Assembly (NCBI GenBank): GCA_030613505.1
Contig: JAUWLW010000003.1
Span: 41,387-105,386, forward strand
Length of the DNA: 64,000 nt
From: Candidatus Zixiibacteriota bacterium
GTDB taxonomy: Bacteria > RBG-13-66-14 > B26-G2 > WVWN01
Reading direction: 5' to 3'
Position numbers and translations under genes: made by a program. This document shows positions 15,359 through 45,556 of the stretch, one piece after another. The notes below the pieces were generated by a model. That model made no database searches and was not told where the DNA came from. It was given only the letters and a program-made list of their open reading frames with translations. The first letter of the stretch is position 1; every line of letters starts with the position of its first letter.

Positions 15359-16472
15359 ATGGAAGACTTAAGCGAACTCGAGCAACAGCTGGATAAACTT
15401 ACCCGCGCGGTGGACGACGTCCGGGACGGCCTTTGACCCGGAAAACACCGCCAACCGTATCGTCGACCTTGAGGAAAAGGCCGGCGCTCCGGACCTTTGG
15501 GGAAACCGCGACCGGGCCCAGGCGTTACTCGCCGAGCTGAGCCGTCTTAAAAAACGGGCCGAAGCGCTTGCCGCGGCCGAAAAGAAGCTTGAGGATTTGG
15601 GCGTCTTCTACCAACTCTGCCTCGAGGAACAAGCCGCATGCGCCGACTTCGCCTGCGAGCTCTCGGCTCTGGATGCAGAGGTCGAGCGCCTGTCTTTGTT
15701 GACCTTCCTGGGAGGGCCGTACGACGCTTCCGACGCCATCGTGGAGGTCAAACCCGGCGCGGGCGGCGTGGACGCCTCCGATTGGGCCGAGATGCTCTTT
15801 AGGATGTACCTCAAGTGGTGCGAGGCACGGGGGTATCAATGCGACGTCCTGGCGGCCGAGGTCGCCGAAGAAGCCGGCGTACGGCTCACTATGTTCGAAG
15901 CCCGCGGCGATTACGCGTACGGCAACCTGAGCTGCGAGGCCGGCGTCCACCGCCTGGTGCGGATATCACCCTTCGACCAAAAAGGCCGCCGCCATACCTC
16001 GTTCGCCAACGTCGCCGTGTGGCCCAAACTCGACGAGAAGGTGCAGGTGGAGATAGACGAGAGCAACCTCAAGGTAGACACGTTCCGCTCGTCGGGGCCC
16101 GGCGGCCAGCACGTGAACGTTACGGACTCGGCGGTGCGCATGACCCACCTCCCCACCGGCATCGTCGTATGTTGCCAGGCCGAACGTTCGCAACACCTTA
16201 ACCGCCTCCGGGCGCTGGAGGTATTGCGCGCGAAATTACACCAATTAAAAGAGGACGAGCGACGGGCTCGCGTCGAAGACCTCAAGGGGCCCAAACGCGA
16301 CATCGCGTGGGGGAACCAAATACGCTCTTACGTCCTCTTCCCGTACCAGCTGGTCAAAGACTTGCGGACGGGATACGAGACGAGCGACGTCGACGGCGTC
16401 CTCGACGGCGGCCTTGACGAATTGATCGCCGCGGCGCTAAAGTGGCGCGGCAAGAAGGGGGGCCGGAATTAA
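15359..16472 (+). CDS. prfB: Peptide chain release factor 2, requiring a programmed +1 frameshift at 15431-15437
   Basis: Frame 0 runs from ATG 15359 for 25 codons (MEDLSELEQQLDKLTRAVDDVRDGL) and ends at CTT TGA C. The +1 frame from 15435 continues DPENTANRIVDLEEKAGAPDLW... into the listed ORF 15597..16472, which carries SPF (SPFDQKGRRHTS) and GGQ (GPGGQHVN). Confidence 0.9.
15431..15437 (+). promoter_or_regulatory. RF2 autoregulatory +1 frameshift site CUU UGA C
   Basis: The exact heptamer CTTTGAC falls at codon 25-26 of prfB. Both flanking frames encode RF2 sequence. Confidence 0.85.
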
Positions 16473-17139: not shown

Positions 17140-17556
17140 ATGCGCGCGTTTATTATCGTAACGACGTTCGCGGTCGCGGCCGCGGCGGCCCAGGGCGGCT
17201 TCGTCCCGGCGCAGCCGATACACGTCGAGCCGCTGGGCGAAATCGAGGTAGAGCCGGGGGTGGTTTTCGCCGACACGGTGGTACTGAAGCTCGCCGTCGA
17301 CGCCGAGGGGCAAATCACGGATGCCGAGGTATGGTCCTCCTCCGGCTACAACGTTGTAGACGCGGTGGCTTTGGCGTCGGCGCGTAAATGCATCTTTATA
17401 CCGGCCACCCAGGACGGCGAGCCCGTCGAATCTTTCTATCAGATTTATTACCGGCTCTCGGCGTACAGAACGCGGAAGTATTTGAGCGCCGAAGAAAAGG
17501 CCGGGACGGCCGGGAAAACACCTCCCCCCGAGGAGGACGATGACGGAGGAGACTAA
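17140..17556 (+). CDS. TonB-C-terminal-domain protein
   Basis: Start at MRAFIIVTTFAVAAAAAQG (signal peptide). LKLAVDAEGQITDAEVWSSSGYNVVDAVALASARKCIFIPATQDGEPV fits the TonB_C pattern. Acidic/Pro tail. Confidence 0.55.
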   Translation: MRAFIIVTTFAVAAAAAQGGFVPAQPIHVEPLGEIEVEPGVVFADTVVLKLAVDAEGQITDAEVWSSSGYNVVDAVALASARKCIFIPATQDGEPVESFYQIYYRLSAYRTRKYLSAEEKAGTAGKTPPPEEDDDGGD

Positions 17557-19894
17557 AAGCCTGCGCGATATCCGGTTGGACAAGCTCGCCCGCCTTCGCG
17601 AGCGAGGGGTCGACCCCTACCCCGTGGCGTCGACGCGAAGCCACGTCATACGCGACGTCACGACGGCCTTCGACGAGCTCGAGGGCAAAGAGGTAGCCGT
17701 CGTGGGCCGCGTCACCGCGCTCCGCCCACACGGCAGGGCCTCCTTCGCCGACGTAACCGACGCCACCGGTAAGATACAGCTGTACTTCAAATCGGACCTG
17801 CTGGGCGAGAGGTACGAGCTCTTCGACCTCCTGGACCTGGGCGACTTCGTGGGCGCCGCGGGTAAAGTTTTTAAGACTAAAACGGGTGAGATCACGATCG
17901 CCGCCGAGGACTTCACGCTCCTGGCCAAAGGGCTCCGCACGCCGCCGGTGGTGAAGACCGAAAAAACGGAAGAGGGCGACGTCACCCACGACGAGTTCGC
18001 CGACCCGGAGAAGCGGTACCGGAAGCGCTACCTCGACGTGATGGTCAACCCGCAGGCGCGGGCCTGCGTCCTCACCCACGCCGAAGTGCTCCGGGCGGCG
18101 CGGCGGTTCATGGCGGAACAGGGCTACGCCGAGATCGAGACCCCCATCCTCCAGCCGCTGTACGGCGGCGCCAACGCCTCCCCGTTCACCACCCGACACC
18201 GCGACCTGGAGATGGACCTCTACCTTCGCATCGCCGACGAGCTCTACCTCAAACGCCTTCTCGTCGCCGGCCTCGAGAAGGTTTACGAAATCGGCAAAGA
18301 CTTCCGCAACGAATCCATCGACCGGACCCACTACCCGGAATTCACCATGCTCGAGGCGTACGAGGCCTTCGGCGACTACCGGACGATGATGGCGCTGACC
18401 CGGGGCCTTATAATCGCCGCCGCGGAAGAGATACGTGGCACGTTGAAGCTGACGTACCAGGGCCGGGAAGTAACCCTCGAGCCACCGTGGGCCCGGGTCT
18501 CGCTGGTCGCGACGTTGAACGAACGGCTGGACGTGGACGTTCTGAATGAAGAGACGCAAACGCTCTCCGACCTTTACGTCCTACATTACCTGAAACGTTA
18601 CGACGAACCACAGCGGGGAAATACTGAAACCAATGAGAAAAAAGCGAGAGAAGCTATGTACGGTGCTTCGCGCGCCAAGGTAATCGACGCGCTTTTTGAC
18701 TTATTAGTGGCTTGCGATATTTGGAACCCGACGTTCGTGGTGGACTACCCGGCGGAACTTTCGCCCCTCGCCAAAAGGCAACCCGACAACCCGGCGCTCG
18801 CAGAGCGCTTCGAGCTATACCTTTGTAATATGGAAATAGCCAACGCCTTTAGCGAGCAAAACGACCCGGCCGAGCAGCGCAAGGCGCTGGAGGCGCAGGC
18901 GGAGGCCGGGGCCGCCGGCGACGAGGAAGCGCAACAGATGGACGAGGACTTCCTGGAGGCGCTCGAGTACGGCATGCCGCCCGCCGGCGGCTTGGGCGTC
19001 GGCATCGACCGCCTCGCGATGATCCTCTCCGATGCCCCCAGCATCCGCGAGGTCATCGCTTTTCCGTGTATAAAAACGGACATTGAACGAGCGGTAACGA
19101 AAGAGGTAGCGCTATCCGAACTGAGGCGACTATATATAGAAATTGTAGGTGAAAGTATCGATAAAGACCCGAATAAAAAATACTTAGAATACAAATATGT
19201 ACCTATGTTAATGGGGATAGTCGTGGGGGTTAAGCGCTCCACAGCGAAAGGAATCGTAGAATACGATTTGCGTTCTGGGATGGTTAACGACCCGCGTTTC
19301 GCGACGAGGAAGTTTAACGAATACCAAAACAAAATAAGAGCATATTTCGGCGACGAATTCCCTAAAGATAAGTTAGATCACTATTTCCAAGAATTTTATA
19401 TTAAGGGAGCCGAAGACGCTGCTATTAAGAATTCGTTATTCGAAATGCACGCGGAGTTAATCGATATCTTAGTATGCGAAGAAAAGATTAGACTTATAGA
19501 AAGGATAACCGTCATAGGAAAACCTATAAGGGCGAAGACTGGTCCCGTATTCGGATTTGGAGTAAAAGGTGCATGGGATATTAAAGTGGGTAAAGTTTAC
19601 TTCGCAGTAACGACCCAGGGAAGGAACGAAACTTCGTTCAGGATATTCCCGGATTTGAAATACTTTGATTCCACAATAAAGTCAGGGACACTTTCTGGGC
19701 TGATAGATTTTACTAAAAAAAGTGAAAAGCTCAAAATAGGTTTACCGATCGAACGAAGTGAACTAGAAGATAAAATTATAGAACTATCCTTAATTTACGA
19801 ACCTATACCTTTCCCGGAAGTCCCGGGACCGCACTCGCTTAGAAAAAAGATAGATAGTATAGATATTACCGAAGACATACTTGCATTATTATAA
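17540..19894 (+). CDS. lysS: Lysine--tRNA ligase (class IIb) fused in frame to a 275-aa non-native C-terminal extension
   Basis: Residues 1-509 form a complete LysRS: OB-fold N-terminus, motif 2 DFRNESIDRTHYPEFTMLE, motif 3 [22 protein letters not shown]. From codon 510 (TGT, 19067) the ORF continues through AT-rich sequence to 19894 instead of ending a few codons after AFP. Confidence 0.9.
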   Translation: MTEETKSLRDIRLDKLARLRERGVDPYPVASTRSHVIRDVTTAFDELEGKEVAVVGRVTALRPHGRASFADVTDATGKIQLYFKSDLLGERYELFDLLDLGDFVGAAGKVFKTKTGEITIAAEDFTLLAKGLRTPPVVKTEKTEEGDVTHDEFADPEKRYRKRYLDVMVNPQARACVLTHAEVLRAARRFMAEQGYAEIETPILQPLYGGANASPFTTRHRDLEMDLYLRIADELYLKRLLVAGLEKVYEIGKDFRNESIDRTHYPEFTMLEAYEAFGDYRTMMALTRGLIIAAAEEIRGTLKLTYQGREVTLEPPWARVSLVATLNERLDVDVLNEETQTLSDLYVLHYLKRYDEPQRGNTETNEKKAREAMYGASRAKVIDALFDLLVACDIWNPTFVVDYPAELSPLAKRQPDNPALAERFELYLCNMEIANAFSEQNDPAEQRKALEAQAEAGAAGDEEAQQMDEDFLEALEYGMPPAGGLGVGIDRLAMILSDAPSIREVIAFPCIKTDIERAVTKEVALSELRRLYIEIVGESIDKDPNKKYLEYKYVPMLMGIVVGVKRSTAKGIVEYDLRSGMVNDPRFATRKFNEYQNKIRAYFGDEFPKDKLDHYFQEFYIKGAEDAAIKNSLFEMHAELIDILVCEEKIRLIERITVIGKPIRAKTGPVFGFGVKGAWDIKVGKVYFAVTTQGRNETSFRIFPDLKYFDSTIKSGTLSGLIDFTKKSEKLKIGLPIERSELEDKIIELSLIYEPIPFPEVPGPHSLRKKIDSIDITEDILALL
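18972..19066 (+). repeat. Left copy of the 95-bp imperfect direct repeat (lysS 3' end)
   Basis: 84/95 nt identical to 20760..20854 by hand alignment. Encodes [31 protein letters not shown]. Confidence 0.9.
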
Positions 19895-20759
19895 TACTAG
19901 CGATCTTCCTAGCCTATGCTCCTAACATCCGAGAGGTAATAGCCTTCGCGTAACTGCGGGTTAAATAATATTAACGGTAAAATATGGTTTGGAATATAGA
20001 TAAAATATGGCCTTGGGCCGTTGGATATATATGCATTATTGGTTGCGTAATAATATTCCGTCTTATATCTAATCGGAGAAAACTTAGGACGGGCGCCGGT
20101 AAAAAACCAACGTCGGAAGTTGAACGGAAAATATTCAATTTCCAAGAATTCCTTCTATCATTAGCGATATTCGGATTAATCCTCAATTTTTACAGCCTCG
20201 AACTTAATAGGATTAATACCGAGAAAAATTTGGAAAACTATGAGGTAACTAATAGACCATATATCTTTATTAGGAAAATTAACGGCAAATTAGATAAAAC
20301 TACGAATGTTTTAAACTGTAGAGTCGCGATAATTAACACAGGTTCTGTACCGAGTTTGAATACTAAAATCACTGGCAAGGTTTTTTTTGGTGATGAATCC
20401 TACGAAAGCAAAGATAAACCAGGTTATTCAGCGATTTATCCGGAATCCTTAGTCTGGACCAGGTTCGGTTTTCCCGTTGATCCAGTAAAACCCGTTAAAA
20501 TCGTTAATAAAGTGACTTATTCCGATTACCGCGGGTATTTATACGAATACGAAGTCCATATTAGATATAATCGCGAGTTCCATAGTTTCACGTTCGAGAA
20601 ATCTGACGAGACTATTACTAAACCTCAATTACCTAATTAAAAAGCCCGCGTATTATTTCGGGAGTAAGACGTAGGGAATTAAAGGGTAAGATCGCCGGCA
20701 GTAAGAAAGGTTAATGGGCTTCGTAAAGGTACTCATTTGGCCTGCTATAATATTCTCCA
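19067..20759. mobile_element. AT-rich ~1.7-kb insertion in the lysS 3' end (no integrase or transposase seen; mechanism unknown)
   Basis: Sharp composition break: hand counts of single 60-nt lines give 20/60 G+C (19381-19440) and 15/60 (20221-20280), versus 45/60 at 18961-19020. The segment is bounded exactly by the two repeat copies. Confidence 0.7.
19984..20640 (+). CDS. Hypothetical 2-TM membrane protein (island cargo)
   Basis: 218-aa AT-rich ORF. Hydrophobic helices WPWAVGYICIIGCVIIF and FLLSLAIFGLILNFY are followed by a ~140-aa soluble domain. No family recognised. Confidence 0.5.
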   Translation: MVWNIDKIWPWAVGYICIIGCVIIFRLISNRRKLRTGAGKKPTSEVERKIFNFQEFLLSLAIFGLILNFYSLELNRINTEKNLENYEVTNRPYIFIRKINGKLDKTTNVLNCRVAIINTGSVPSLNTKITGKVFFGDESYESKDKPGYSAIYPESLVWTRFGFPVDPVKPVKIVNKVTYSDYRGYLYEYEVHIRYNREFHSFTFEKSDETITKPQLPN

Positions 20760-20854
20760 GCATGCCGCCCGCCGGCGGCCTGGGCGTCGGCGTCGACCGC
20801 GTCGCGATGATCCTGGCCGACGCGTCCAACATCCGCGAGGTCATCGCGTTCCCG
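20760..20854 (+). repeat. Right copy of the 95-bp imperfect direct repeat
   Basis: Encodes [31 protein letters not shown]. The sequence then continues QLRVKK-stop, the expected LysRS ending. Confidence 0.9.
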
Positions 20855-20875
20855 CAGCTTAGGGTAAAAAAGTGA
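20762..20875 (+). pseudogene. Displaced native 3' end of lysS (last 37 codons plus TGA)
   Basis: GC-rich fragment [37 protein letters not shown]. It is a motif-3-to-terminus piece of a class II LysRS with no upstream catalytic core. Confidence 0.8.
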
Positions 20876-20899
20876 CGGCTATCTTCTCGCAATAGGCTA

Positions 20900-21613
20900 A
20901 TGTTTTCGTATACCGCCGCCATGGAAGGAATAGAAATCCCCACCCGCGAGCTCGTCTTAGGGCTCGTCGGCGTATACAACCGGGCGCACTGGCCCGCGGC
21001 GGCCTTCGGCGCCGTCGTCGCGTTGGCCGCGGCCGCGTTCGTATTGGCCAGGCCCGGCGCCTTCAGCGACTTAATAGTTAAAATTCTGCTCAACGTGTTG
21101 TGGCTCTGGACCGCCATTATCTTCTTTTGGGGCCGCTTCGCGCCCGATTTCCACGTCGCCTATCTCTTCGCCTTCGCCTTCATACTACAGGGCACTTTTT
21201 TCTTTATGGACGCCTTCTTCGGAACGTTGGAATTCCGACCTTTTAAAAGTCCCGCCACGCTATTAATAGGGTGTTCGTTGATCGGCGTGGCCGGAATCTT
21301 ACACCCTATTATTTCGACCTGGCTCGGCCGCGGTTGGCCCGAGCTGAGGCTCGTAGGCACCGCGCCGGGGCCCACCGCGGCATTTACGTTGGCCCTACTC
21401 ACTTTCACGCTCCATAAGCCGAGGCCGCTATTTTTCGTGGTCCCCGCGGCCTGGGCGCTAATCGCCGGCCTTTGCGTCGCCGAGGCCTGGCACTTTTACG
21501 AGGAATTAATCCTGGCCGGCGTCGCGGCCGCGGTTATACTTTATTTCGTAGCCGCCTTATGGCGAACGCTGCCCGTACGCGAATCTAAACCCGCCGGAGG
21601 AGCTACCCCATGA
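20900..21613 (+). CDS. Polytopic membrane protein, paralog 1 (family not confidently named)
   Basis: ~6 hydrophobic helices. Shares ARPG..SD, LEFRPF/IEFRPY and GWPEL motifs with the next gene. Confidence 0.6.
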   Translation: MFSYTAAMEGIEIPTRELVLGLVGVYNRAHWPAAAFGAVVALAAAAFVLARPGAFSDLIVKILLNVLWLWTAIIFFWGRFAPDFHVAYLFAFAFILQGTFFFMDAFFGTLEFRPFKSPATLLIGCSLIGVAGILHPIISTWLGRGWPELRLVGTAPGPTAAFTLALLTFTLHKPRPLFFVVPAAWALIAGLCVAEAWHFYEELILAGVAAAVILYFVAALWRTLPVRESKPAGGATP

Positions 21614-22326: not shown

Positions 22327-23295
22327 ATGAACCACCTCCCTATAATTACAGCCACGCTGGCGGCCGCCCTCGCGGCAACGTCCGCGGCGACGTACGTATA
22401 CGAAGGGCAATGGGGCCGGTTGGGTACGGGCCACGGCGCGTTCACGGAGGTCTCCGGCGTCGCCGTGGCGCCGAACGGAAACGTCTACGTCTCCGACCAG
22501 GGTAACAATTGCATCCAATACTTTACGGCCGGCGGCAGCTTCCTCGGCAAGTGGGGGACGGCCGGTACGGAGCCGGGGCAATTCAACAGGCCGTTCGGCG
22601 TGGCGGTCGCGCCAAAAGGAAGGGTATACGTCGCCGATACGCGTAACGACCGCATACAATACTTCACCGCGACCGGCAGCTACCTCGGCCGATGGGGCCG
22701 GCCTGGGTCGGGGGCGGGAGAGTTCGATAGACCCCGGGGCATCGCGGTTGCACGTAGCGGGAACGTCTTCGTCGCCGACGCCGAGAACGACCGCGTACAA
22801 CGGTTCACCGCCAACGGCGGTTACTTGGGGAAGTGGGGTCACAGCGGTAAACGCGACGGCCAGTTCGACTTCCCCGCCGACGTCGCGCTCGCGCCCGACG
22901 GCCGGGCGTACGTGGCGGACGCCGGGAACGCGCGGGTCCAATATTTTACGGCGTTCGGGACGTTTCTGGGTAAATGGGGCTCGTGGGGCTACGGCAAAGG
23001 CCAATTCTTCTTCCCGAAAAATATAACCGTTTCGGCCGACGAACGGGTATTCGTGACGGAGGATTTCAACCACCGCGCCCAGTATTTTACGACGAGCGGC
23101 AGTTTTCTTGGAATGTGGGGCTCGCTCGGAAAGGGCGAAGGAGAATTCAACGAGCCGCGGGGCGTCGCGACGTTTAATAACGGCAAACGCGTCTACACCG
23201 CGGACAGGTGGAACGACCGCGTCCAGTATTTCCGGCGCGTGGAATACGACATCGAGCCGTGCTCGCTCGGGCGCGTCAAAGCGCTCTTCGAATAA
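22327..23295 (+). CDS. Secreted NHL-repeat beta-propeller protein, copy 1
   Basis: Signal peptide, then six units of the type GQFNRPFGVAVAPKGRVYVADTRNDRIQYFT. C-terminus EPCSLGRVKALFE. Confidence 0.85.
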   Translation: MNHLPIITATLAAALAATSAATYVYEGQWGRLGTGHGAFTEVSGVAVAPNGNVYVSDQGNNCIQYFTAGGSFLGKWGTAGTEPGQFNRPFGVAVAPKGRVYVADTRNDRIQYFTATGSYLGRWGRPGSGAGEFDRPRGIAVARSGNVFVADAENDRVQRFTANGGYLGKWGHSGKRDGQFDFPADVALAPDGRAYVADAGNARVQYFTAFGTFLGKWGSWGYGKGQFFFPKNITVSADERVFVTEDFNHRAQYFTTSGSFLGMWGSLGKGEGEFNEPRGVATFNNGKRVYTADRWNDRVQYFRRVEYDIEPCSLGRVKALFE

Positions 23296-23391
23296 CGGAC
23301 ATCATCACCTCTTCCGTTAGGAACAAACGGCGAGTACGATTATTAACGGGACCGTACGACGGTCTCACCGCTTACCCGGGGAGGTTCGAAT

Positions 23392-24369
23392 ATGAGAATA
23401 GGAATTGCGACGGCGGCCGTATTACTAGCCACGACAGCGGCGTTCGCCGACTTCGCGTACGAAGGGAAGTGGGGCGCGCAAGGGACCGGCGAAGGGCAGT
23501 TCGACCACCCGTGGGACGTCGCCGTTGCGCCCGGCGGCCGGGTTTTCGTCGTCGACCGCCACAACCACCGCGTCCAGTACTTCACGCCTACCGGGAGTTA
23601 CCGCGGGAAGTGGGGCTCGTACGGCACCGGCGCCGGCAAGTTCCGCTTTCCCTCCGGGATCGCCGCCTCGGCGACCCGCGTGTACGCGGGCGATTCGCTG
23701 AACCACCGGATACAATACTTCACAAGCGCGGGGAGTTTCCTGGCATCTTGGGGCGCCGCCGGGACGGGCGAGGGACAATTCAATAAGCCGCTGGGGGTAG
23801 CCCTGGCGCCGAACGGCAACGTATACGTCGTGGACGCCGGCAATTACCGCGTCCAGTACTTTTCGCCGGCGGGGAGCTTCCTGGGCAGTTGGGGCGCGCG
23901 GGGCAGCGGCCAGGGCCAATTCGACGACCCACAAGGGATAGCGGTAGGCGAAAACGGCAACGTTTACGTCGCGGACGCCGGCAATCACCACGTCCAGCGG
24001 TTTACTTCGGGCGGGAGCTACGTGCGGTCGTGGGGCACGCGTGGAACCGGCGACGGCCAATTCAATACGCCGTGCGGCGTCGCGGTCGGCCCGGAAGGCA
24101 ACATATACGTCGTCGATTGCTACAACCACCGCATCCAGTACTTTACGCCGACGGGTAGTTTCCTCGGCAAGTGGGGCTCCTTCGGCACCGGCGACGGCCA
24201 ACTCAATTACGCGTGGGGCGTCGCCGCGACGCGGTGGAGCCGCGGTGATACGTCGACGGTACGAGTATACGTCGCGGATACCAACAACAACCGCGTGCAA
24301 TATTTTAAGGACGGCCTGCCCGCGGTCGAGCCGACGTCGTTGGGGCGCGTAAAAGGGCTTTTCAAATAA
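23392..24369 (+). CDS. Secreted NHL-repeat beta-propeller protein, copy 2
   Basis: Signal peptide MRIGIATAAVLLATTAAFA and six NHL units. C-terminus EPTSLGRVKGLFK. Confidence 0.85.
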   Translation: MRIGIATAAVLLATTAAFADFAYEGKWGAQGTGEGQFDHPWDVAVAPGGRVFVVDRHNHRVQYFTPTGSYRGKWGSYGTGAGKFRFPSGIAASATRVYAGDSLNHRIQYFTSAGSFLASWGAAGTGEGQFNKPLGVALAPNGNVYVVDAGNYRVQYFSPAGSFLGSWGARGSGQGQFDDPQGIAVGENGNVYVADAGNHHVQRFTSGGSYVRSWGTRGTGDGQFNTPCGVAVGPEGNIYVVDCYNHRIQYFTPTGSFLGKWGSFGTGDGQLNYAWGVAATRWSRGDTSTVRVYVADTNNNRVQYFKDGLPAVEPTSLGRVKGLFK

Positions 24370-24466
24370 ATCGCGTAACGGACCTGACGGCAACTTCCTA
24401 ACACGGCTCCGGTTCGGGACGGCGTTCGCGCCGAGCCGGTAATCACATCTGAACAAAGGACGGAAA

Positions 24467-25432
24467 ATGAAACGAGTATCGATACTAGCCGCTCTCTCAA
24501 TTTGTATCGCCGCGGCCGCCTCCGCCGATTTTAAATACGCCGGCCAGTGGGGCTCGCCCGGTACCGCCGCGGGCGAATTCAACGCGCCGACGGGGATAGC
24601 GGTCGCGCCCAACGGCAACGTCTACGTCGCCGACGAGTTCAACCATCGCATCCAATACTTCACCGCCGCCGGCAGCTTCCTCGGCCGGTGGGGTTCGCGC
24701 GGCTCCGGTAAGGGTGAGTTTATCTACCCCGCCGACGTGGCGGTGGCGCCCAACGGCAACGTCTACGTCGCCGACTTCGACAACAATCGGATCCAGTACT
24801 TCAAACCGAACGGCACGTTCGTGGGCAAGTGGGGCGAGTACGGCATCTTGCCGCGGTTCTTCAATAAGCCGCACGGCGTCGCCGTAGCGCGCAACGGCAA
24901 CGTCTACGTGGCGGATACCTATAACAATCGCGCGCAGTACTTCACTCGAGCCGGCAGCTTCCTGGGCTCCTGGGGCACTAAAGGCGCCGCCGACGGCCAA
25001 TTCGACCAACCCATTAGCATCGCCGTCGCGCCCCACGGCAACGTCTACGTCGCGGACCGGCTCAACAACCGGGTGCAGTACTTCGACGCCAAGGGCGCCT
25101 TCCTCGGTAAATGGGGCACGAAGGGCTTCGGCTGGGGACAATTCGAGTACCCCTCGGCTATAGCGGCCAGCCCCGACTACCGCATCTACGTCACCGATTA
25201 CTCCTGGCACCACGTCCAGTATTTTACGGCGTCCGGCAGCTTCCTCGGCAAATGGGGAGGCCAAGGGACGCTCAACGGCGAATTCAACTTCCCCGACGGC
25301 ATCGCCATTTCGCCGGCGGGTACGAAGGCGTACGTGGCCGACTCCGGCAATAACCGCATTCAGTACTTCAAGCGCGTCGAGCCCGCCGTCGCGCCTACGT
25401 CGCTTGGGCGCGTGAAGGCGCTGTTTAAATAA
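24467..25432 (+). CDS. Secreted NHL-repeat beta-propeller protein, copy 3
   Basis: Signal peptide MKRVSILAALSICIAAAASA and six NHL units. C-terminus APTSLGRVKALFK. Confidence 0.85.
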   Translation: MKRVSILAALSICIAAAASADFKYAGQWGSPGTAAGEFNAPTGIAVAPNGNVYVADEFNHRIQYFTAAGSFLGRWGSRGSGKGEFIYPADVAVAPNGNVYVADFDNNRIQYFKPNGTFVGKWGEYGILPRFFNKPHGVAVARNGNVYVADTYNNRAQYFTRAGSFLGSWGTKGAADGQFDQPISIAVAPHGNVYVADRLNNRVQYFDAKGAFLGKWGTKGFGWGQFEYPSAIAASPDYRIYVTDYSWHHVQYFTASGSFLGKWGGQGTLNGEFNFPDGIAISPAGTKAYVADSGNNRIQYFKRVEPAVAPTSLGRVKALFK

Positions 25433-25448
25433 TAATTAAACTAACGCT

Positions 25449-26228
25449 TTGGGAAAAACGGTCAATTTATTGACCGGTATTGTTGCCGGCCTAAACGTCA
25501 TCTTACCATCCGTCGTCGCCGGCGGAACCGCCGTCGAAGGACTTACGGCGGAAAAAGCGGGAATACCCGAGCGAGATTTCATATCTCCCGAAACCGCAAA
25601 AAAATTAGCAGCCCCGCTTCGGGACCCTTTGGCGGGTGATTACGTCGTTGAGAACACGATAGTATTCCCTTGGTTAATAGAAGATTGGAACGTCTACGAG
25701 CCCGATATAAAAATGGGTTTTTACGAGATAACCGTCTACAGCGGTAAAACTCGATACTCCACGCACGCTGCCTTAAACGCCAAGGTAGAAGAATATCTTC
25801 GTTCGGTTAAGCCGCTCATTTACATCCGCAGCGGCGAGTGGTACGTGGAACCTCGGGAGTTACTATCTAGAGAAGCGTTAACCCGTGAATTATTCGGATA
25901 CTCCGACGTAATTACTTACTGGATCCCGGTTAATAAAAAATACGGCCGAAAAAGGTCGTCGTGGTCTGATAGCGCTATCGGTTGGAATACGCTGATGTTA
26001 CATATATGTAGTACCGTAGCCTCGAAGGTCGCCCCTAGTCATAACCCGGTTTATGAAAAGACGATTAAATTTTCCGGTTTAAACGAATTCACGATTTTTA
26101 GAATTAATAGTGAGGAGATTTTCATACAGACCGGGGATATACACAACCGGCACCGTATATTTACCAGTAAAGCGGATTTCGACGAATATTTACTGGCGAA
26201 CGTCGAAACGATCAAGGTTAAAGAATGA
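25449..26228 (+). CDS. Hypothetical protein in an AT-rich islet
   Basis: 259-aa ORF (TTG start in the track) with a hydrophobic N-terminus LLTGIVAGLNVILPSVVAGG. Hand-counted G+C is 18/60 at 26041-26100 and 24/60 at 25681-25740. No family recognised. Confidence 0.45.
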   Translation: MGKTVNLLTGIVAGLNVILPSVVAGGTAVEGLTAEKAGIPERDFISPETAKKLAAPLRDPLAGDYVVENTIVFPWLIEDWNVYEPDIKMGFYEITVYSGKTRYSTHAALNAKVEEYLRSVKPLIYIRSGEWYVEPRELLSREALTRELFGYSDVITYWIPVNKKYGRKRSSWSDSAIGWNTLMLHICSTVASKVAPSHNPVYEKTIKFSGLNEFTIFRINSEEIFIQTGDIHNRHRIFTSKADFDEYLLANVETIKVKE

Positions 26229-40830: not shown

Positions 40831-43800
40831 ATGTCGGCTATATGCCCCAATTGCGGCCGGGCCCTCGCGCCGACCGCGGCTTTTTGCCCCAACTGCGGCG
40901 TTAAAATTGGCGAAGCAGGAGAAGAAGCCGCCGCCGTGTCGGCCGAGCTCGCGGGGCTCGACCTACTAAGCCCTTCCCTCTCGCCCGACCTACTGGGTGA
41001 ATTGACCGAAAAATTCCTCGCCGCCGCGGACGAACTTGCCGCGGAGCGCGGCGGCGTAGTCACCCGCGAAAGCTCTTCCGCCGTTACCGTCAAATTTCCC
41101 CGCAACCTCGAGTCGCCGGCAGCCACGGCGGCGTCCTGCGCCCTAATCCTCCGGGACGCCACCCGCGGCCTCTTGGCAACGTCGCCGGAAGATTTAAGTG
41201 CGAGCGCGTACCTAACGGCCGGCGTGGACGCGACGCCGAAGGAAATCGATGTCGCCGGCGAATCTCAGGCTCCCGGTGCAAAGGCGAAAAGGCTCCGAAG
41301 AAAAGCGGGCAAGTGGGTTATTCTCGCAGGCGAAAACGTCTATACCCTAACCACCGGGGATTTCAAATACGTTCCGGTGGGTTTCTATCAAGCACGAGGG
41401 GATAAACGGGCCGTAAAAATTTACGAATTGAAGGAGGACCGGCGGTACCCCGCGTCGGCCCCGCCGGTCCAAACATCCCCGTTCGTCCCCGCTGCCGGCT
41501 TCGAGGAAGCGATCGAGAACTTCTTCGCGGCCGTCCTTTCCAAAAAACGAAAGCGAATGCTTTTCGTTACGGGTGCATCCGGGACGGGAAAAACCACCTG
41601 GTTGTCGGTTGCGTGCCGCATGGCGCGGAAAAAAGGTTTTACGGTATACGCGTCGTCTTGTACGAAACGCCGCCGGTACACGCCTTTCGGCCTCTGGGCG
41701 CCGATTTGGCGTACGGCGTTTGCCGACATGGCCCCCGAAGTACGGCCGGCGAAAGCCCCCGCTCGAGCCCTTCAAAGAATCGGCGAGGGACTAGATATAT
41801 GGGCGCCGTTAATGGCGCAAATCGTCGGCTTCCGAGCCGATTTGGACCCACACGTCGTAGACGTTTCCCCCGAGTACCGGCACCGGCAAATCCTCGAAAT
41901 CGCGAAGGGTTTAATTACGTGGGCCGCCGCTGAAAGGCCGACGGCCGTAGTGCTCGACGATATCCACTTAGCGGACGCGTCGTCCCGGGCGTTACTCGGC
42001 TCGCTGCTCGCGGTCCCGGCGGAAACGCCGCTCGCGCTCGTATTGGCCAGCGAAACCTCCGACGAGACTTTTAAGCGGGCCGCCGACGGTATTCTATCGA
42101 CAAGACCTTTCACAGAAGAAGAAATCGTCGCTTTGGCCGAGGATTTCGCCGAAACGGACGCGGAAGACGTCGCGCCGTTACTCTACGAGGCCAGCAAAGG
42201 GCGGCCAGATATCCTCGAGCAAATCTGGCTCGCGGCGCGCGAAAATACGGACCTAAACATAAAGTCGTTGGCGGCTGACGGCGCGCCGGATGGACCAACG
42301 CTCGTCGCGCGCCGCTTACGCGATTTCGACTTACGTTGGCAGCGGGCGACTGCGGTCCTAGCGACGCTGGGCGTTCCGGTCGGTGACGAAGACGTACGCG
42401 CCCTCGCCGTGGAAATTTTCGGTACGGACGGTACCGCGGGCGAAGCTTGGCGATATAAATTATATAAACTCCATTTGCTACGACCTTCCTTGGGCGACGG
42501 GGAATCCCTTTGCATACCGCCGCAGCTCGCTTCGGCCGTACTCGCCGCCACGGCGCCGACGCCGGAAAGCCGAACGGCCGCAGCGCAAACGGCGGCCGGT
42601 TTCCTGGCGGAACGTTACCCCCGAGAGCTATCGGCCCGCGTGACCTTGGAGTTAGAGGCCGGGAAGCTACCGGCGGCGTGCGACCTAGCGCAGGAAAACG
42701 TGAAACAAACACGTTGGCTGGGCTCACCCCACGACGCGGTGGCTCAACTGACGGCGGTTATCCACGAGCTAGAGAGGGTAACGCCCCTAGATAAAGCGGA
42801 TTCGGAGCTTTTGCCCCGTCTATTGTATACTCGGGCGGAGGCTTTTTACGAAGCGGGATTGGCCGCCGCCGCCCTTAACGACCTCGAAAAAATCGGAGCC
42901 GAAGAAGGTGAATTGGCGGCGCGGCGTTTTTACACGCAGGGCCAGGTATATTTACGTCGCCGCTACTTCCCGGAAGCCGAAAGCGCATTTATCAAAGCTC
43001 TACAACTCGCCGCCCGTTCAAACGATTACGACTTAGTCGCCGACGTAGAGCTGGCGCTCGCCCACCTGTTTCGCCAACAAGGAGACGTCGCCAAAGCGAC
43101 GTACGAGCTCGAGAAATCGTTGAAGGCCGACCGCGCTCCGTCGGCCCGCGCGTACGAATTACTCGCCGAGCTCAAGTACCGGGCCGGCCACGTTGCCGAC
43201 GCCGTACGAGCCGCGCAAAAAAGTTTATCTTCGATCAACGCCGCGCGAAAGCCGATAACCGCCGCGGATACTGCTCTTTTGTTAGCACTCTTATTCTTCG
43301 ATTACGGCCGGATACCCAACGCCCGCAGCCTAGTCGCAAAAGCGCACGACGCGTTCGCCGTCGTGGGCGATAAACGGCGGGAATGTGATGCGTACCTGCT
43401 CGAGGGTAAGATCGACTTGGCGATCGAGGACCTGACCACGACCGAAACTACCTTCGACGAAGCGTTGCGCTTGGCCGAAGAGGGAGGCTACGGTTTACGC
43501 GCCGTCGAAGCCGCCCTCGGTCTTAGCTTCGTACGGCTTCTCCAAAACGACTTGGCGGGGCACCGTCGTCTTTTAGTCAAAGCCAAGGAGACGGCCACGG
43601 CGGAACCGCACGCGCCCAAAGCGGGTATCTACCTGGTAGAAGCAGCGGCGAACTTCGCGGGGGAGGATTATGACAAAGCGTATCGGATGGCCAGCGACGC
43701 CGCCGCCGAATACCGGCGGACGGGTGATGCGTTTACGTACGGCGTCGCCGCCATCCTCGCCGCCCAGGCAGCACTAGCGGCGGGCAAACGGGATAAGTGC

Positions 43801-44124
43801 CGTGAGATCCTGGGTCAACCGGACATCGACCGTCGCGCCCGGGAATCTAAAGTATCTTTCGCACATTACAATCTAACTGCGGGTAAGCTTATCAACGCCG
43901 AAGGCGACCTCGAGCGTGCGCGAAAACGCTTTGTGGCCGCTGCCGCCGCGGCGCGCGAGTCGGGCCTTTGGCTCGTCCGGGGTGAATGTTACTTGGAACT
44001 GGCCAGCATCGCCGAGTACGAAAACGAGCGTGAGAAGTATCGTCGGCGGGCGTTGTGGTTGCTCGAGAGCAAAGGCGCAACGCTCTTGGCCGGCAAGGCG
44101 AAAAAGAAAGCCGGCTTATTGTAA
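40831..44124 (+). CDS. Zinc-ribbon / degenerate cyclase-homology / P-loop NTPase / TPR multidomain protein (STAND-like)
   Basis: CPNCGRALAPTAAFCPNCG double zinc ribbon. A ~130-aa block follows the class III cyclase skeleton but lacks the metal-binding Asp pair. Walker A VTGASGTGKTTW, Walker B VVLDDIHLAD. The ~550-aa C-terminal half is TPR-like helical repeats. Confidence 0.65.
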   Translation: MSAICPNCGRALAPTAAFCPNCGVKIGEAGEEAAAVSAELAGLDLLSPSLSPDLLGELTEKFLAAADELAAERGGVVTRESSSAVTVKFPRNLESPAATAASCALILRDATRGLLATSPEDLSASAYLTAGVDATPKEIDVAGESQAPGAKAKRLRRKAGKWVILAGENVYTLTTGDFKYVPVGFYQARGDKRAVKIYELKEDRRYPASAPPVQTSPFVPAAGFEEAIENFFAAVLSKKRKRMLFVTGASGTGKTTWLSVACRMARKKGFTVYASSCTKRRRYTPFGLWAPIWRTAFADMAPEVRPAKAPARALQRIGEGLDIWAPLMAQIVGFRADLDPHVVDVSPEYRHRQILEIAKGLITWAAAERPTAVVLDDIHLADASSRALLGSLLAVPAETPLALVLASETSDETFKRAADGILSTRPFTEEEIVALAEDFAETDAEDVAPLLYEASKGRPDILEQIWLAARENTDLNIKSLAADGAPDGPTLVARRLRDFDLRWQRATAVLATLGVPVGDEDVRALAVEIFGTDGTAGEAWRYKLYKLHLLRPSLGDGESLCIPPQLASAVLAATAPTPESRTAAAQTAAGFLAERYPRELSARVTLELEAGKLPAACDLAQENVKQTRWLGSPHDAVAQLTAVIHELERVTPLDKADSELLPRLLYTRAEAFYEAGLAAAALNDLEKIGAEEGELAARRFYTQGQVYLRRRYFPEAESAFIKALQLAARSNDYDLVADVELALAHLFRQQGDVAKATYELEKSLKADRAPSARAYELLAELKYRAGHVADAVRAAQKSLSSINAARKPITAADTALLLALLFFDYGRIPNARSLVAKAHDAFAVVGDKRRECDAYLLEGKIDLAIEDLTTTETTFDEALRLAEEGGYGLRAVEAALGLSFVRLLQNDLAGHRRLLVKAKETATAEPHAPKAGIYLVEAAANFAGEDYDKAYRMASDAAAEYRRTGDAFTYGVAAILAAQAALAAGKRDKCREILGQPDIDRRARESKVSFAHYNLTAGKLINAEGDLERARKRFVAAAAAARESGLWLVRGECYLELASIAEYENEREKYRRRALWLLESKGATLLAGKAKKKAGLL

Positions 44125-44218
44125 ACCGGGGACGCGATGAGAAGGTCGAGCAAAGGGGCGGCCCATATCGACCCGGGGAGGGATACGCCGAGATTGTAAC
44201 CTGGATGGCAAAAAAACC

Positions 44219-44247
44219 TTGACTTGTAAGTGATTTTATATTTTAAT
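44219..44247 (+). promoter_or_regulatory. Candidate promoter of the mglB-mglA operon
   Basis: TTGACT, 17-nt spacer, TTTAAT, inside a 217-bp AT-rich intergenic region. Confidence 0.3.
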
Positions 44248-44350
44248 CGAAAAAGTAAAGAAGTACCTTTTAAACTTAGGCCAGACCATCTTTTATATAT
44301 AAACCCACGCGCCGGCGCCGCGCTAGGTTGTCGTACGCGAGGTGAGGTTG

Positions 44351-44851
44351 ATGCCTGGGATGGAACTCGTCCTTTTTGAAGAAGACTATACCAACATCAA
44401 CGAAATATTGGCGACGCTCGTCCGCGAAACCAATTCCAAGTTCGCGTTACTAGTGGACCGCTCGGGGCAGCTCATCTCGAGCCAAGGGGATACCGAGAAT
44501 ATGGACTCGTTATCCTTCGCTTCGCTCTCGGCAGGCAACTACGCCGCGACCAGCGAACTCGCGAAAATCCTCGGCCAAGAGGAGTTCTCGGTACTCTTTC
44601 ACCAAGGCATCAGCGAATCGATACATCTTTCCATAGTCGCCAAACGCGTTATTCTGGTCGTAGTCTTCGACAACAAGACTACGTTGGGTTTAGTTCGGCT
44701 CAGAGTTAAAAAAGCGGTAGAAGAACTCTCGGGTATATTTAACCGCATCTTCCAAAAGGTCGCAGAGCGCGGCGCCGAAGCGTTTTCGCCGCTGGGTGAT
44801 ACCTTCACGAGCGTCGCCGAAAGCGAAATAGACAACCTTTTCAAAGATTAA
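44351..44851 (+). CDS. mglB: Roadblock/LC7-domain protein, MglB-like GTPase-activating protein
   Basis: ILATLVRETNSKFALLVDRSGQLISSQGD... is a Roadblock/LC7 pattern, and the gene lies directly upstream of mglA. Alternative starts at 44342 and 44360. Confidence 0.75.
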   Translation: MPGMELVLFEEDYTNINEILATLVRETNSKFALLVDRSGQLISSQGDTENMDSLSFASLSAGNYAATSELAKILGQEEFSVLFHQGISESIHLSIVAKRVILVVVFDNKTTLGLVRLRVKKAVEELSGIFNRIFQKVAERGAEAFSPLGDTFTSVAESEIDNLFKD

Positions 44852-44883
44852 AAAAGCCCTTGCCCTCGGCCGGGGGTTCGGTT

Positions 44884-45477
44884 ATGTCGCTAATTAACTA
44901 TTCATCCCGCGAAATTAACTGCAAGATCGTTTATTACGGTTGCGGTCTTTGCGGTAAGACTACTAACCTCCTGTACATCCACGAGAAGCTTCCCCACGAC
45001 ATCAAGGGGAAAATGGTCTCGCTGGCCACCGATACTGACCGGACCCTCTTCTTCGATTTCCTACCGCTCGAGCTGGGAACGGTGAACGGCTTCAAAACAC
45101 GCTTCCACCTCTATACCGTACCCGGCCAGGTCCACTACGACGCCTCGCGGAAGCTAATCCTGAAGGGCGTAGACGGCATCGTCTTCGTCGTGGACTCCCA
45201 GCGCAACCGCTTCGACGAAAACATAGAATCCTTCGAAAATATGATAAAGAACCTCCAGCTCCAGGGATACCGGCTCGAAAACATCTCGTATATATTCCAA
45301 TACAACAAGCGCGATTTACCTAACTGTTCGCCGGTGGAACAACTCGAAGCCGCGCTCAACAAGGAACAGGTACCGTGCTTCGAATCGATCGCGACTACCG
45401 GTATCGGCGTATTCGACTCCTTGCGTGCGATCTCGAAGCTCGTTATTGCGCATCTTTCCCGCCAAACGGCCCGTTAA
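44884..45477 (+). CDS. mglA: MglA-family Ras-like small GTPase
   Basis: MSLINYSSREINCKIVYYGCGLCGKTTN (P loop), DRTLFFDFLP, MglA-specific YTVPGQVHY (Thr in place of the DxxG Asp), NKRDL. Confidence 0.88.
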   Translation: MSLINYSSREINCKIVYYGCGLCGKTTNLLYIHEKLPHDIKGKMVSLATDTDRTLFFDFLPLELGTVNGFKTRFHLYTVPGQVHYDASRKLILKGVDGIVFVVDSQRNRFDENIESFENMIKNLQLQGYRLENISYIFQYNKRDLPNCSPVEQLEAALNKEQVPCFESIATTGIGVFDSLRAISKLVIAHLSRQTAR

Positions 45478-45556
45478 TCAGAAACTCGCTCTAGTCCCGG
45501 CGGCGGGCGGCGGTGCCCGGGTACTGTCGCGAGCCGCCGTTTTTCAAGTCCAAACC

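Follow-up and report, generated by a model that had tools for sequence, protein, structure and literature searches.

For C-terminal displacement in Rhs, CdiA and T6SS effector loci, the published explanation is homology-facilitated illegitimate recombination (Jackson 2009, Kirchberger 2017, as covered in PMC5361080). In these arrays, homology is provided by the conserved 5' part of the gene, which acts as the anchor. Each import brings a new 3' tip together with a small downstream gene, and the old tip, which keeps a conserved piece, moves downstream. After several rounds a series of orphan ends is left, and the arrays spread by homologous recombination. The same geometry is found at the lysS locus described here, where a conserved gene body carries a variable tip and orphan ends follow downstream. 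In contrast to the secreted polymorphic toxins, the anchor is an essential housekeeping enzyme, Pfam and PADLOC give no sign that the extension of lysS is a toxin or the downstream ORF218 an immunity protein, and the displaced lysS pieces measure only 70-116 nt and encode nothing useful. Since LysRS is a cytoplasmic enzyme and neither the extension nor ORF218 shows a toxin, immunity or secretion signature, the locus shares the recombination geometry of Rhs-type arrays but is not a member of that class; a toxin tip with an immunity gene on a secreted protein was not found.

Homology-facilitated illegitimate recombination itself was described in naturally transformable bacteria (de Vries & Wackernagel 2002, Prudhomme 2002, Meier & Wackernagel 2003, as covered in PMC5361080; see also PMC3240628) and is rare where it has been measured (PMC5361080). 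There, as in our locus, a one-sided anchor with a donor-type tract has foreign DNA attached to it, and the second junction, apparently like the one here, is arbitrary and may duplicate or delete recipient sequence. The process is known mainly from laboratory selections, whereas we read it from natural products, apparently of two illegitimate events at one gene.

The 3' end of lysS is also a known integration site. In Streptococcus and Enterococcus, tyrosine-integrase conjugative elements and the vanD islands Tn6711-6713 integrate there, with lysS repeats of 13-17 bp that include the F-P codons (TTCCCAACAATGA) (PMC4701971, PMC8301612). Target gene and gene part are the same as here, direct repeats likewise flank foreign DNA, and the 13-bp core covers the F-P codons at which lysS and the extension are joined. 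These islands, however, encode an integrase and leave lysS intact, and the vanD islands span 112-126 kb. In our case a 1.7-kb insert without an integrase is flanked by a 95-nt repeat diverged by 12%, the gene end is replaced by a fusion, and one junction cuts a cargo gene.

A LysRS with an additional domain has a precedent in LysX, an MprF-like lysyl-phosphatidylglycerol synthase fused to LysRS, in which the extra domain is N-terminal and has a known function. Both proteins combine a class II LysRS and an extra domain in one polypeptide. Of our fusion protein, only the LysRS part matches the LysX model; the extra domain lies at the C-terminus, is a recent horizontal acquisition, and a search of 1.84 billion protein cluster representatives gave no relative.

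Three lysS ends from three alleles

The window, by which we mean the whole 64,000-nucleotide stretch analysed, comes from an uncultured Coatesbacteria/Zixibacteria-like bacterium and contains a lysS gene whose 3' end occurs three times in series and in the same orientation, once as the working end and twice stranded, each from a different allele (Table 1). A degenerate lysS-end pattern (AACATCCGNGAGGTNATNGCNTTC) occurs three times in the window and not once in 100 shuffles.

Table 1. Features of the lysS locus, in window coordinates
Feature	Position	Strand	Remarks
lysS-extension fusion ORF, 784 aa	17540..19894	+	From the ORF listing; complete class II LysRS (1-509) and 275-aa extension
Start of non-native lysS tract	18401..18727	+	Includes replaced patch 18524-18727
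lysS segment of diverged allele, window strain only	18728..18971	+	86.0% identical to L083
Left copy (L)	18972..19066	+	Working lysS, motif-3 region to ...AFP; imported type
Extension	19067..19894	+	275 codons, in frame with lysS; G+C 0.39; stop 19892-19894
Middle copy (M)	19897..19968	+	Degenerate, lower-G+C stranded lysS end; out of frame with fusion ORF
ORF218, small membrane protein	19984..20640	+	Two N-terminal helices, beta-rich C-terminal part; G+C 0.36
5' fragment of second ORF218-family gene	20714..20759	+	About 16 codons; cut by right junction
Right copy (R)	20760..20875	+	Stranded native lysS end with its own QLRVKK-stop; intact
Native spacer and first DUF6064 gene, right-hand host flank	20876..21613	+	Collinear with relatives; Pfam DUF6064

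The initial annotation had recognised the two outer copies as a direct repeat, and the figures given for it, 84 of 95 nt identical with two encoded peptides, hold on the sequence (88% identity). The longest perfect run is 20 nt, the two copies do not differ in their first 20 nt, and a C at repeat position 14 is common to both and absent from L083 and L001, two relatives. The 1,693 bp between them have a G+C content of 40%, as against 60% for the window. In 64 kb, 19001-20800 (40% G+C) is the sole strongly A+T-rich island, which bears out the reported drop in composition. The view that the segment is foreign is supported. As stated at the time, only the right of these two copies continues to QLRVKK-stop (20855-20875), and the left copy runs without a stop through the extension, so that an essential synthetase is encoded as a fusion in a single ORF. 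Pfam finds tRNA_anti-codon and tRNA-synt_2 in this ORF, and residues 9-513 correspond to positions 4-487 of 488 in the NCBIfam lysine--tRNA ligase model. Three further features extend that description: the third lysS end, non-native lysS upstream of the repeat and a truncated gene at the right junction.

The right copy matches Pfam tRNA-synt_2 (E = 8e-12) and agrees at 92 of 95 positions (hand count) with the lysS end in use in the close relative L083, and at 85 of 95 with L001. The flank beyond it is collinear with L001, L002, L005, L006 and L008 and, from 20933 on, 97.8% identical to L083. R is thus the native end, stranded downstream as proposed. The left copy reaches only 83-84 of 95 against L083 (77 of 95 against L001), which marks it as imported, and its likeness to lysS tails ends at 19066. 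It is more distant than the right copy from every relative, which fits two different lysS alleles, as had been suggested, and not a local duplication. The same five collinear relatives show the empty site that the initial annotation had proposed to look for, with lysS ending in ...AFPQLRVKK-stop directly before the DUF6064 gene.

The middle copy is recognisable as a lysS end by tblastn (E = 2.5e-4). It differs from the right copy at 20 positions, distributed 7/0/13 over codon positions 1/2/3, and has a GC3 of 0.50 (right copy 0.84). The absence of differences at second codon positions, together with this GC3, argues that M was still a functioning gene end while it diverged and was stranded only later. 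Its spacing to ORF218 (15 nt) mirrors the 12 nt between lysS and ORF203 in L083. The three copies do not share their limits: the left boundary of the middle copy lies 44-47 nt further in than those of the outer copies, and the left copy stops at AFP while the middle and right copies run on to a stop. There is therefore no common core with fixed limits.

Foreign sequence is not confined to the A+T-rich insert. Along the gene, the identity of the window lysS to L083 is 97.1% (17540-18400), then 80.5%, then an unalignable patch, then 86.0%, while the distance from L083 to L001 is unchanged across the same segments. Mismatches are rare up to 18401 and clustered from 18402/18424 on, which places the start of the non-native tract at about 18.40-18.42 kb, some 550 nt upstream of the repeat. 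In a codon alignment, the patch (G+C 0.49, GC3 0.54) is 38-43% identical to L083, L001, L002 and L005, which are 68-85% identical to one another there; the variable subdomain that it encodes is unlike those of all relatives. A contig of a different strain, L084, shares the patch at 98.5%. In L084, however, the segment 18728-18971 is L083-like (92-93%), so that the 244 nt directly left of the repeat are native-type up to its boundary and the foreign patch is kept further upstream. In the window, 18401-19066 forms a donor-type tract, divergent relative to L083, that runs directly into the A+T-rich insert, with the mosaic of L084 as a caveat.

Cargo and its distribution among strains

The frame of the extension would be open by chance with P ~2e-9; base-shuffled versions of the stretch carry about 20 stops, and its other five frames carry 5-30. 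The first in-frame start codon does not occur before codon 47. Neither the extension nor ORF218 matches Pfam, PHROG, PADLOC or NCBIfam, and searches for plasmid or phage relatives of the insert gave none. The AlphaFold model of the extension is unusable (pLDDT 34), and the ORF218 model has a pLDDT of 52. Between the window and L084, both cargo ORFs are under purifying selection, with dN/dS values of 0.34 for the extension (P = 0.010) and 0.29 for ORF218. No terminator is predicted between the fusion ORF and ORF218, and the two may therefore share a transcript.

ORF218 belongs to a tiny family located between lysS and DUF6064 genes. Its relatives are P0125/L084 (95%), P0002 (80%) and P0003/L083 (67%), and a homologue in L003 is 33% identical (E = 1e-35). 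Against L083, pN is 0.20 and pS 0.85; the ORF203 gene of that relative shows 71% nucleotide identity to ORF218, with synonymous sites saturated. A second family member survives as the fragment before the right copy. This fragment matches 33 of 38 nt (E = 8.8e-7) at the start of a gene of the family in L003/L085 (7439-8083); the product of that gene begins MNFVQVLIWSAIIFS. At the junction 20759/20760, codon 16 of this second gene is joined to lysS position -116, and both positions appear arbitrary. A junction that cuts a cargo gene at codon 16 is not expected of a defined attachment site.

The structure recurs in three other assemblies. The Logan contig L081 (window 18372-20803) and the ENA contig L082 (19323-20970) are 100% identical to the window and together span both junctions. 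The ENA contig L084, of low coverage (cov 3), represents a different strain that is 94.6% identical, with 281 differences, and has the same architecture. This all but excludes the chimeric contig against which the initial annotation had advised a check. In L084, the left flank is 90-92% identical to the window and the island 97%, whereas L083 is 97% identical in the flanks, yet has only ORF203 in the lysS-DUF6064 interval. The type of island does not track the flanks. Across the clade, the interval is empty, holds ORF203 alone, or spans 3.5 kb with four genes. A nonsense codon interrupts lysS in L084 just before the left copy, in a stop / GGAG / TTG arrangement, a finding that makes it doubtful whether all strains need, or make, the fusion.

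As in the initial annotation, mobility genes and terminal inverted repeats were not found. No integrase or transposase is encoded by the island's two ORFs or by the ORFs scanned between 3 and 46 kb, which outside the island are all housekeeping genes. In or near the island there is no tRNA or Rfam match and no long inverted repeat; those detected are short, imperfect and not terminal. A transposon or insertion sequence was rejected, given the lack of a transposase and of terminal inverted repeats and the 12% divergence of the 95-nt flanking repeat.

Routes of assembly

The locus looks like the product of recombination anchored in the gene itself, not like a classical integrase-driven island. 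We propose, as a reading that we hold to be somewhat more probable than not, that serial C-terminal displacement at lysS gave rise to an accessory islet that varies between strains. Here, imported DNA from related lineages would pair with the recipient through lysS homology on the left, with lysS as the anchor, while the right end of the import would join illegitimately within the last ~70-120 nt of the recipient gene. From then on the working gene would end in the donor's lysS 3' part, and the former end of the recipient gene would lie displaced downstream as a relic. Two such rounds may be recorded. The older relic, M, would derive from a lower-GC3 lysS allele with ORF218 directly downstream, and the younger, R, would be the native end of the window's lineage, stranded in the later round. 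The intactness of R despite its relic status fits a recent stranding, over a length of only 116 nt. The resulting composite of lysS 3' part, extension, M, ORF218 and the stump of the second family gene would now be exchanged among strains through ordinary homologous recombination in lysS and the right flank. LysRS would be made as the 784-aa fusion, with the small membrane protein encoded just downstream. The fusion would be active, and the cargo may have a function.

Several observations sit less easily with serial displacement. Because no donor genome was found, the illegitimate joins are read from their products only; the second junction is defined by codon 16 on the donor side and -116 in lysS. 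The left copy is G+C-rich and the extension A+T-rich, which pushes the origin of the 19066/19067 junction to an unobserved earlier event. L084 is native-type up to the repeat boundary. This pattern is what a crossover inside the repeat, whether site-specific or Campbell-type, predicts, and the displacement model has to assume that the segment was converted back later. The identical first 20 nt and the shared C hint either at a crossover within the repeat or at a donor that already had an R-like copy.

If the crossover did take place within the first ~20 nt of the repeat, the locus could be a site-specific integrative element, either decayed or an integrase-less remnant mobilised in trans, whose attachment site mimics the lysS 3' end. 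The left copy would then be mostly element-derived and the right mostly host-derived, and the middle copy would be the scar of an earlier tandem integration. The position at a conserved housekeeping gene's 3' end and the imperfect direct repeats on both sides of the A+T-rich DNA suit this reading, as does the precedent of the lysS-type islands, whose repeats include the F-P codons. We nevertheless consider it unlikely. The repeat, 95 nt at 88%, compares with 12-54 bp in site-specific streptococcal elements (PMC4701971) and with 13 bp and at most one difference in the vanD islands (PMC8301612). The initial annotation had likened the locus to islands that target gene ends, as at tRNA genes, and carry their own copy of that end. 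Against this stand the non-native tract upstream of the repeat in the window, the cut cargo gene, the three different extents of the copies and the lack of an integrase in the island and among the ORFs scanned between 3 and 46 kb; the gene end, moreover, is not restored to QLRVKK-stop but replaced by 275 in-frame codons. No second lysS end was present at any other LysRS locus fetched from reference genomes.

A crossover in the repeat could also be of the Campbell type. In this scenario, a plasmid or circularised fragment with only a ~95-nt lysS 3' fragment plus the cargo entered by one homologous crossover, the homologous segment being duplicated in the process, and the upstream non-native tract came from separate recombination events. 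After one crossover, an insert is flanked by exactly one hybrid copy at either end, L084 shows the expected native-type sequence up to the repeat, and the locus has clearly been shaped by many independent recombination events. However, 95 nt at 88% with a longest perfect run of 20 nt is a poor RecA-type substrate, the shared patch and the window's diverged 18728-18971 require at least one event more than the anchored model, the different boundary of the middle copy is left unexplained, and no plasmid or phage relative turned up for the insert. We regard this route as very unlikely.

An artefact or local accident, be it a chimeric contig or a lysS end duplicated in situ that later diverged around non-coding filler, is largely refuted and highly improbable: the source is a metagenome assembly, and L084 combines low coverage with an in-frame stop in lysS, but the structure recurs in further assemblies including a second strain, both cargo ORFs are open and constrained in both strains, diverged ORF218 relatives occupy the same genomic interval of other genomes, and the distances of the left copy fit two alleles.

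Consequences for lysS and its neighbours

Genes for aminoacyl-tRNA synthetases count as stable core markers. In the present case, the last third of one such gene appears to have been overwritten by foreign DNA at least twice, and the gene has gained a 275-residue domain with no known relative that is nonetheless under purifying selection. If recombination was anchored in lysS as we propose, the displacement process of polymorphic toxin loci also acts on essential housekeeping genes, and a conserved gene end would suffice for the integrase-free spread of new genes between lineages.

A bolder version, which we think distinctly unlikely, sees in the conserved 3' end of an essential gene a portable homology arm, by which cargo without relatives spreads between species with no recombinase of its own. 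The LysRS-extension fusion and its membrane neighbour would then form a selected functional module, and the stop / GGAG / TTG arrangement of L084 would reflect a real division of the synthetase into two polypeptides. Examples of what such a module would do are a membrane-tethered or regulated LysRS, or sensing or defence using LysRS chemistry.

A mosaic lysS misleads marker-gene phylogeny in an uncultured clade. Stranded gene ends are a readable record of past transfers and also an annotation trap; in one assembly, a 53-codon relic is annotated as a gene.

The lysS fusion gene and its A+T-rich island

In the window, prfB, two TonB_C genes and lysS precede two DUF6064 genes, after which come three NHL-repeat genes. 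lysS starts at 17540 and encodes a complete class II lysyl-tRNA synthetase (LysRS), of which residues 9-513 align to positions 4-487/488 of the NCBIfam lysine--tRNA ligase model. Past codon 509 (…AFP, 19066), the reading frame continues for another 275 codons and stops at 19892-19894. No called gene on record has exactly this fusion protein as its product. The G+C content is ∼40% in 19067-20759 (1,693 nt) versus 60% for the window, and this segment is the sole strongly A+T-rich island within the 64 kb.

The initial annotation held that the inserted DNA is foreign, that the native lysS end is displaced and that the enzyme is encoded as a fusion, and it was right on all three points. The direct repeat that it reported on either side of the insert (18972-19066 and 20760-20854) indeed matches at 84 of 95 nt, and the ending QLRVKK-stop is reached from the right copy only. 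Beyond this description we found a third lysS end, a non-native part of lysS upstream of the repeat and a gene stump beside the right copy.

Features of the lysS locus, its surroundings and related contigs (window positions unless a contig is named)
Feature	Position	Description
prfB frameshift site	15430-15436 (region 15425-15440)	classic programmed +1 site CTT TGA C, upstream of the long RF2 frame (15597-16472)
Patch	18524-18727	inside lysS; G+C 0.49, GC3 0.54
Left copy	18972-19066	lysS end, continuing into the extension
Extension	19067-19894	275 codons fused in frame to lysS
Middle copy	19897-19968	third lysS end, in a frame different from that of the fusion ORF
ORF218	19984-20640	small membrane protein
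Stump	20714-20759	46 nt, adjoining the right copy on its left; 5' part of a second ORF218-family gene
Right copy	20760-20875	stranded lysS end
53-codon chimeric ORF	20714-20875	16-codon membrane-protein stump in frame with the stranded LysRS end
NHL-repeat genes	22327-25432	three tandem proteins of ∼322 aa each; common C-terminal motif …(S/T)LGRVK(A/G)LF(E/K), possibly a sorting signal
259-aa ORF	25449-26228	no Pfam match; immediately precedes a MacB/FtsX-type ABC transporter pair
Low-G+C segment	25401-26400	moderately low G+C (0.47) around the 259-aa ORF
Cluster adjoining thrS	40831-46603	1,097-aa AAA_16/TPR (STAND-like) protein, then Roadblock/LC7, small Arf/MglA-like GTPase and DUF4388 protein; looks like a small-GTPase signalling cluster
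Split site in L084	L084 1930-1950 (= window 18957-18977)	left edge of the left copy
lysS-DUF6064 interval in L085 (= L003 contig)	L085 3980-8083	Zixiibacteriota-labelled MAG; two paralogous ∼375-aa secreted proteins (71% mutual identity), a 347-aa protein and an ORF218-family gene; G+C 0.53-0.60, slightly below the flanks

An assembly chimera, which had been raised as the alternative, is ruled out by three further contigs. Two of them, L081 from Logan (window 18372-20803) and L082 from ENA (window 19323-20970), are each 100% identical to the window and jointly cover both junctions. The third, L084 (ENA ERZ26800074), comes from a different strain (94.6% identity over 5,195 nt, 281 differences) and has the same order of left copy, extension, middle copy, ORF218, stump and right copy.

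Native and imported parts of the locus

Uncultured MAGs under the labels Coatesbacteria, Zixiibacteriota or "bacterium" are the closest reference genomes, with LysRS identities of 71-80%. The empty site that the initial annotation proposed to look for is present in five relatives' loci (L001, L002, L005, L006 and L008), where lysS ends …AFPQLR[VIT]KK* and the DUF6064 gene follows within ∼70 nt. None of the other LysRS loci fetched from reference genomes has a second lysS end.

A very close relative, L083 (GCA_030589375.1; flanks 95.7-97.8% identical at the nucleotide level), shows which copy is native. At its working lysS end, 92/95 nt agree with the right copy and only 83-84/95 with the left copy. 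Window and L083 are 97.1% identical over 17540-18400 and 86.0% over 18728-18971, while the patch is unalignable, and their mismatches cluster from 18402/18424 on. The distance of L083 to the outgroup L001 is constant across these lysS segments. The variable subdomain encoded by the patch (…LSDLYVLHYLKRYDEPQRGNTETNEKKAREAMYGASRAKVIDALFDLLVACDIW…) is unlike that of any relative's or database LysRS, and the patch is shared with the L084 strain at 98.5% identity. A protein database search for the donor gave no closer allele (best 64%). In the window, the imported tract thus extends from ∼18.40-18.42 kb to 20,759, and the right copy and everything downstream are native.

The type of island is independent of its flanks. 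L083 has 97% flank identity, yet it carries only ORF203, without extension or stranded end, and this ORF203 block takes the place of the lysS tail through DUF6064 codon 11. L084 is 90-92% identical to the window in the left flank and 97% in the island; its 18728-18971 segment is L083-like (92-93%), whereas the patch and all sequence from 18972 on are window-like. It follows that the locus is a mosaic of recombined segments. Across the clade, the lysS-DUF6064 interval is empty, contains ORF203 alone or holds 3.5 kb with four genes (L003), and it is a variable hot spot.

The middle copy is recognised by tblastn (E = 2.5e-4), and a degenerate lysS-end pattern occurs three times in the window and in none of 100 shuffles. 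Middle and right copies differ at 20 sites over 22 codons, 7 times at the first, never at the second and 13 times at the third codon position, and their GC3 is 0.50 versus 0.84. Even decay would leave all second positions unchanged with a probability of (2/3)^20, or ∼3e-4; the bulk of the divergence therefore arose while the middle copy still served as the end of a functioning lysS allele of lower GC3. A few disabling changes (M>I, I>F, D>Y, P>A, Q>stop) are later. ORF218 starts 15 nt past the middle copy, and its relative ORF203 in L083 starts 12 nt past the working lysS stop. The middle copy together with ORF218 thus retains an older lysS-ORF218 arrangement.

The stump matches the start of the L003/L085 family member at 33/38 nt (E = 8.8e-7). 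The protein encoded there starts MNFVQVLIWSAIIFS and shares 33% identity with ORF218 (E = 1e-35). The chimeric ORF that begins in the stump is called as a gene in L084, but all three changes in its leader between the strains (3/3) are non-synonymous and the ORF is thus probably non-functional.

Possible routes of import

We favour serial C-terminal displacement, the model put forward for Rhs and T6SS effector arrays (PMC5361080), which we apply here to the lysS locus. In this process, the incoming DNA would be anchored by homology within lysS on the left and joined illegitimately on the right. Each import would carry its own lysS 3' part and strand the prior end, and ordinary recombination could later exchange the composite. 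We prefer this model because the donor-type tract runs without a break into the cargo, the right junction falls at arbitrary points within both a cargo gene and lysS, the limits of the three copies are unequal, and neither the island nor the ORFs scanned between 3 and 46 kb included a recombinase gene. At 19066/19067, where the G+C-rich lysS end meets the A+T-rich extension, there is no trace of an old lysS tail, and displacement leaves this join unexplained.

The main rival, site-specific integration at the lysS 3' end, is credible. Integrase-driven elements use this site in Firmicutes, and their core covers the same F-P codons at which lysS meets the extension here (PMC4701971, PMC8301612). 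Furthermore, native-type sequence in L084 reaches as far as the repeat boundary, and the first 20 nt of the left and right copies are identical. However, of four defining features tested, three were not observed, and the fourth, native host sequence outside the repeats, gave a mixed picture: left of the repeat the window is non-native for ∼550 nt, and L084 is native-type in the adjacent 244 nt but has the foreign patch further upstream. The origin akin to tRNA-gene islands proposed in the initial annotation is probably not the route. An intein or homing endonuclease is rejected, as such domains are lacking and the insert lies at the very end of the gene, and a transposon is rejected in the absence of a transposase and terminal repeats. 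Serial displacement at lysS would be a known kind of process acting on an unusual substrate.

The cargo and its expression

No relatives of the extension were found in a word-indexed search of 5.8 billion proteins or an exhaustive HMMER search against 1.84 billion representatives, and there was no match in Pfam, PHROGs, PADLOC, NCBIfam, PDB sequences, or IMG/VR and JGI metagenome contig scans. The 1.7-kb insert as a whole, searched by BLASTN as suggested at the outset, had no match among phages and plasmids. Comparison of the extension with ORF218 and with the L003 proteins inserted past lysS showed no relationship. Past the AFP of the left copy there is no significant similarity to lysS tails, and the fusion therefore did not result from a native tail that simply lost its stop or shifted frame.

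The chance of an open frame as long as the extension is low (P ∼2e-9). It is open in both strains, with 14 non-synonymous and 11 synonymous differences (dN/dS 0.34, P = 0.010 versus neutrality), and its beta-rich C-terminal half is more constrained (dN/dS 0.12). The extension is thus a true coding region. Its structure prediction is unusable (pLDDT 34). Because its first in-frame start codon is codon 47 and lacks a ribosome-binding motif, the extension in the window can be produced only as a LysRS fusion.

ORF218 is predicted to have a pair of helices at the N-terminus and a C-terminal part rich in beta structure, but the model is poor (pLDDT 52), and a PDB fold search with it gave no match at E <= 0.001. 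The protein is conserved: its dN/dS is 0.29 versus L084; versus L083, pN is 0.20 and synonymous sites are saturated. In L083 and L003, family members immediately precede the DUF6064 pair, and scans of metagenome, genome and viral collections for family loci returned the L003 contig only. The island holds no Rfam family, tRNA gene or terminator.

In L084, the frame is split by three changes within 15 nt (CTC>CTG, TAC>TAA, ATG>TTG). The Tyr codon before the left copy (window 18969-18971) is TAA, with the variant at its third base, the change in the preceding CTC creates GGAG and the Met codon is TTG, giving the order GGAG-TAA-GGC-TTG. The resulting lysS encodes a 476-aa LysRS without motif 3, followed 3 nt on by a 306-aa TTG-initiated ORF that contains motif 3 and the extension. 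This arrangement may reflect a genuine split of the gene, a pseudogene whose genome has a further LysRS, or an error at a coverage of only 3x, and it matters for the question whether the fusion is essential.
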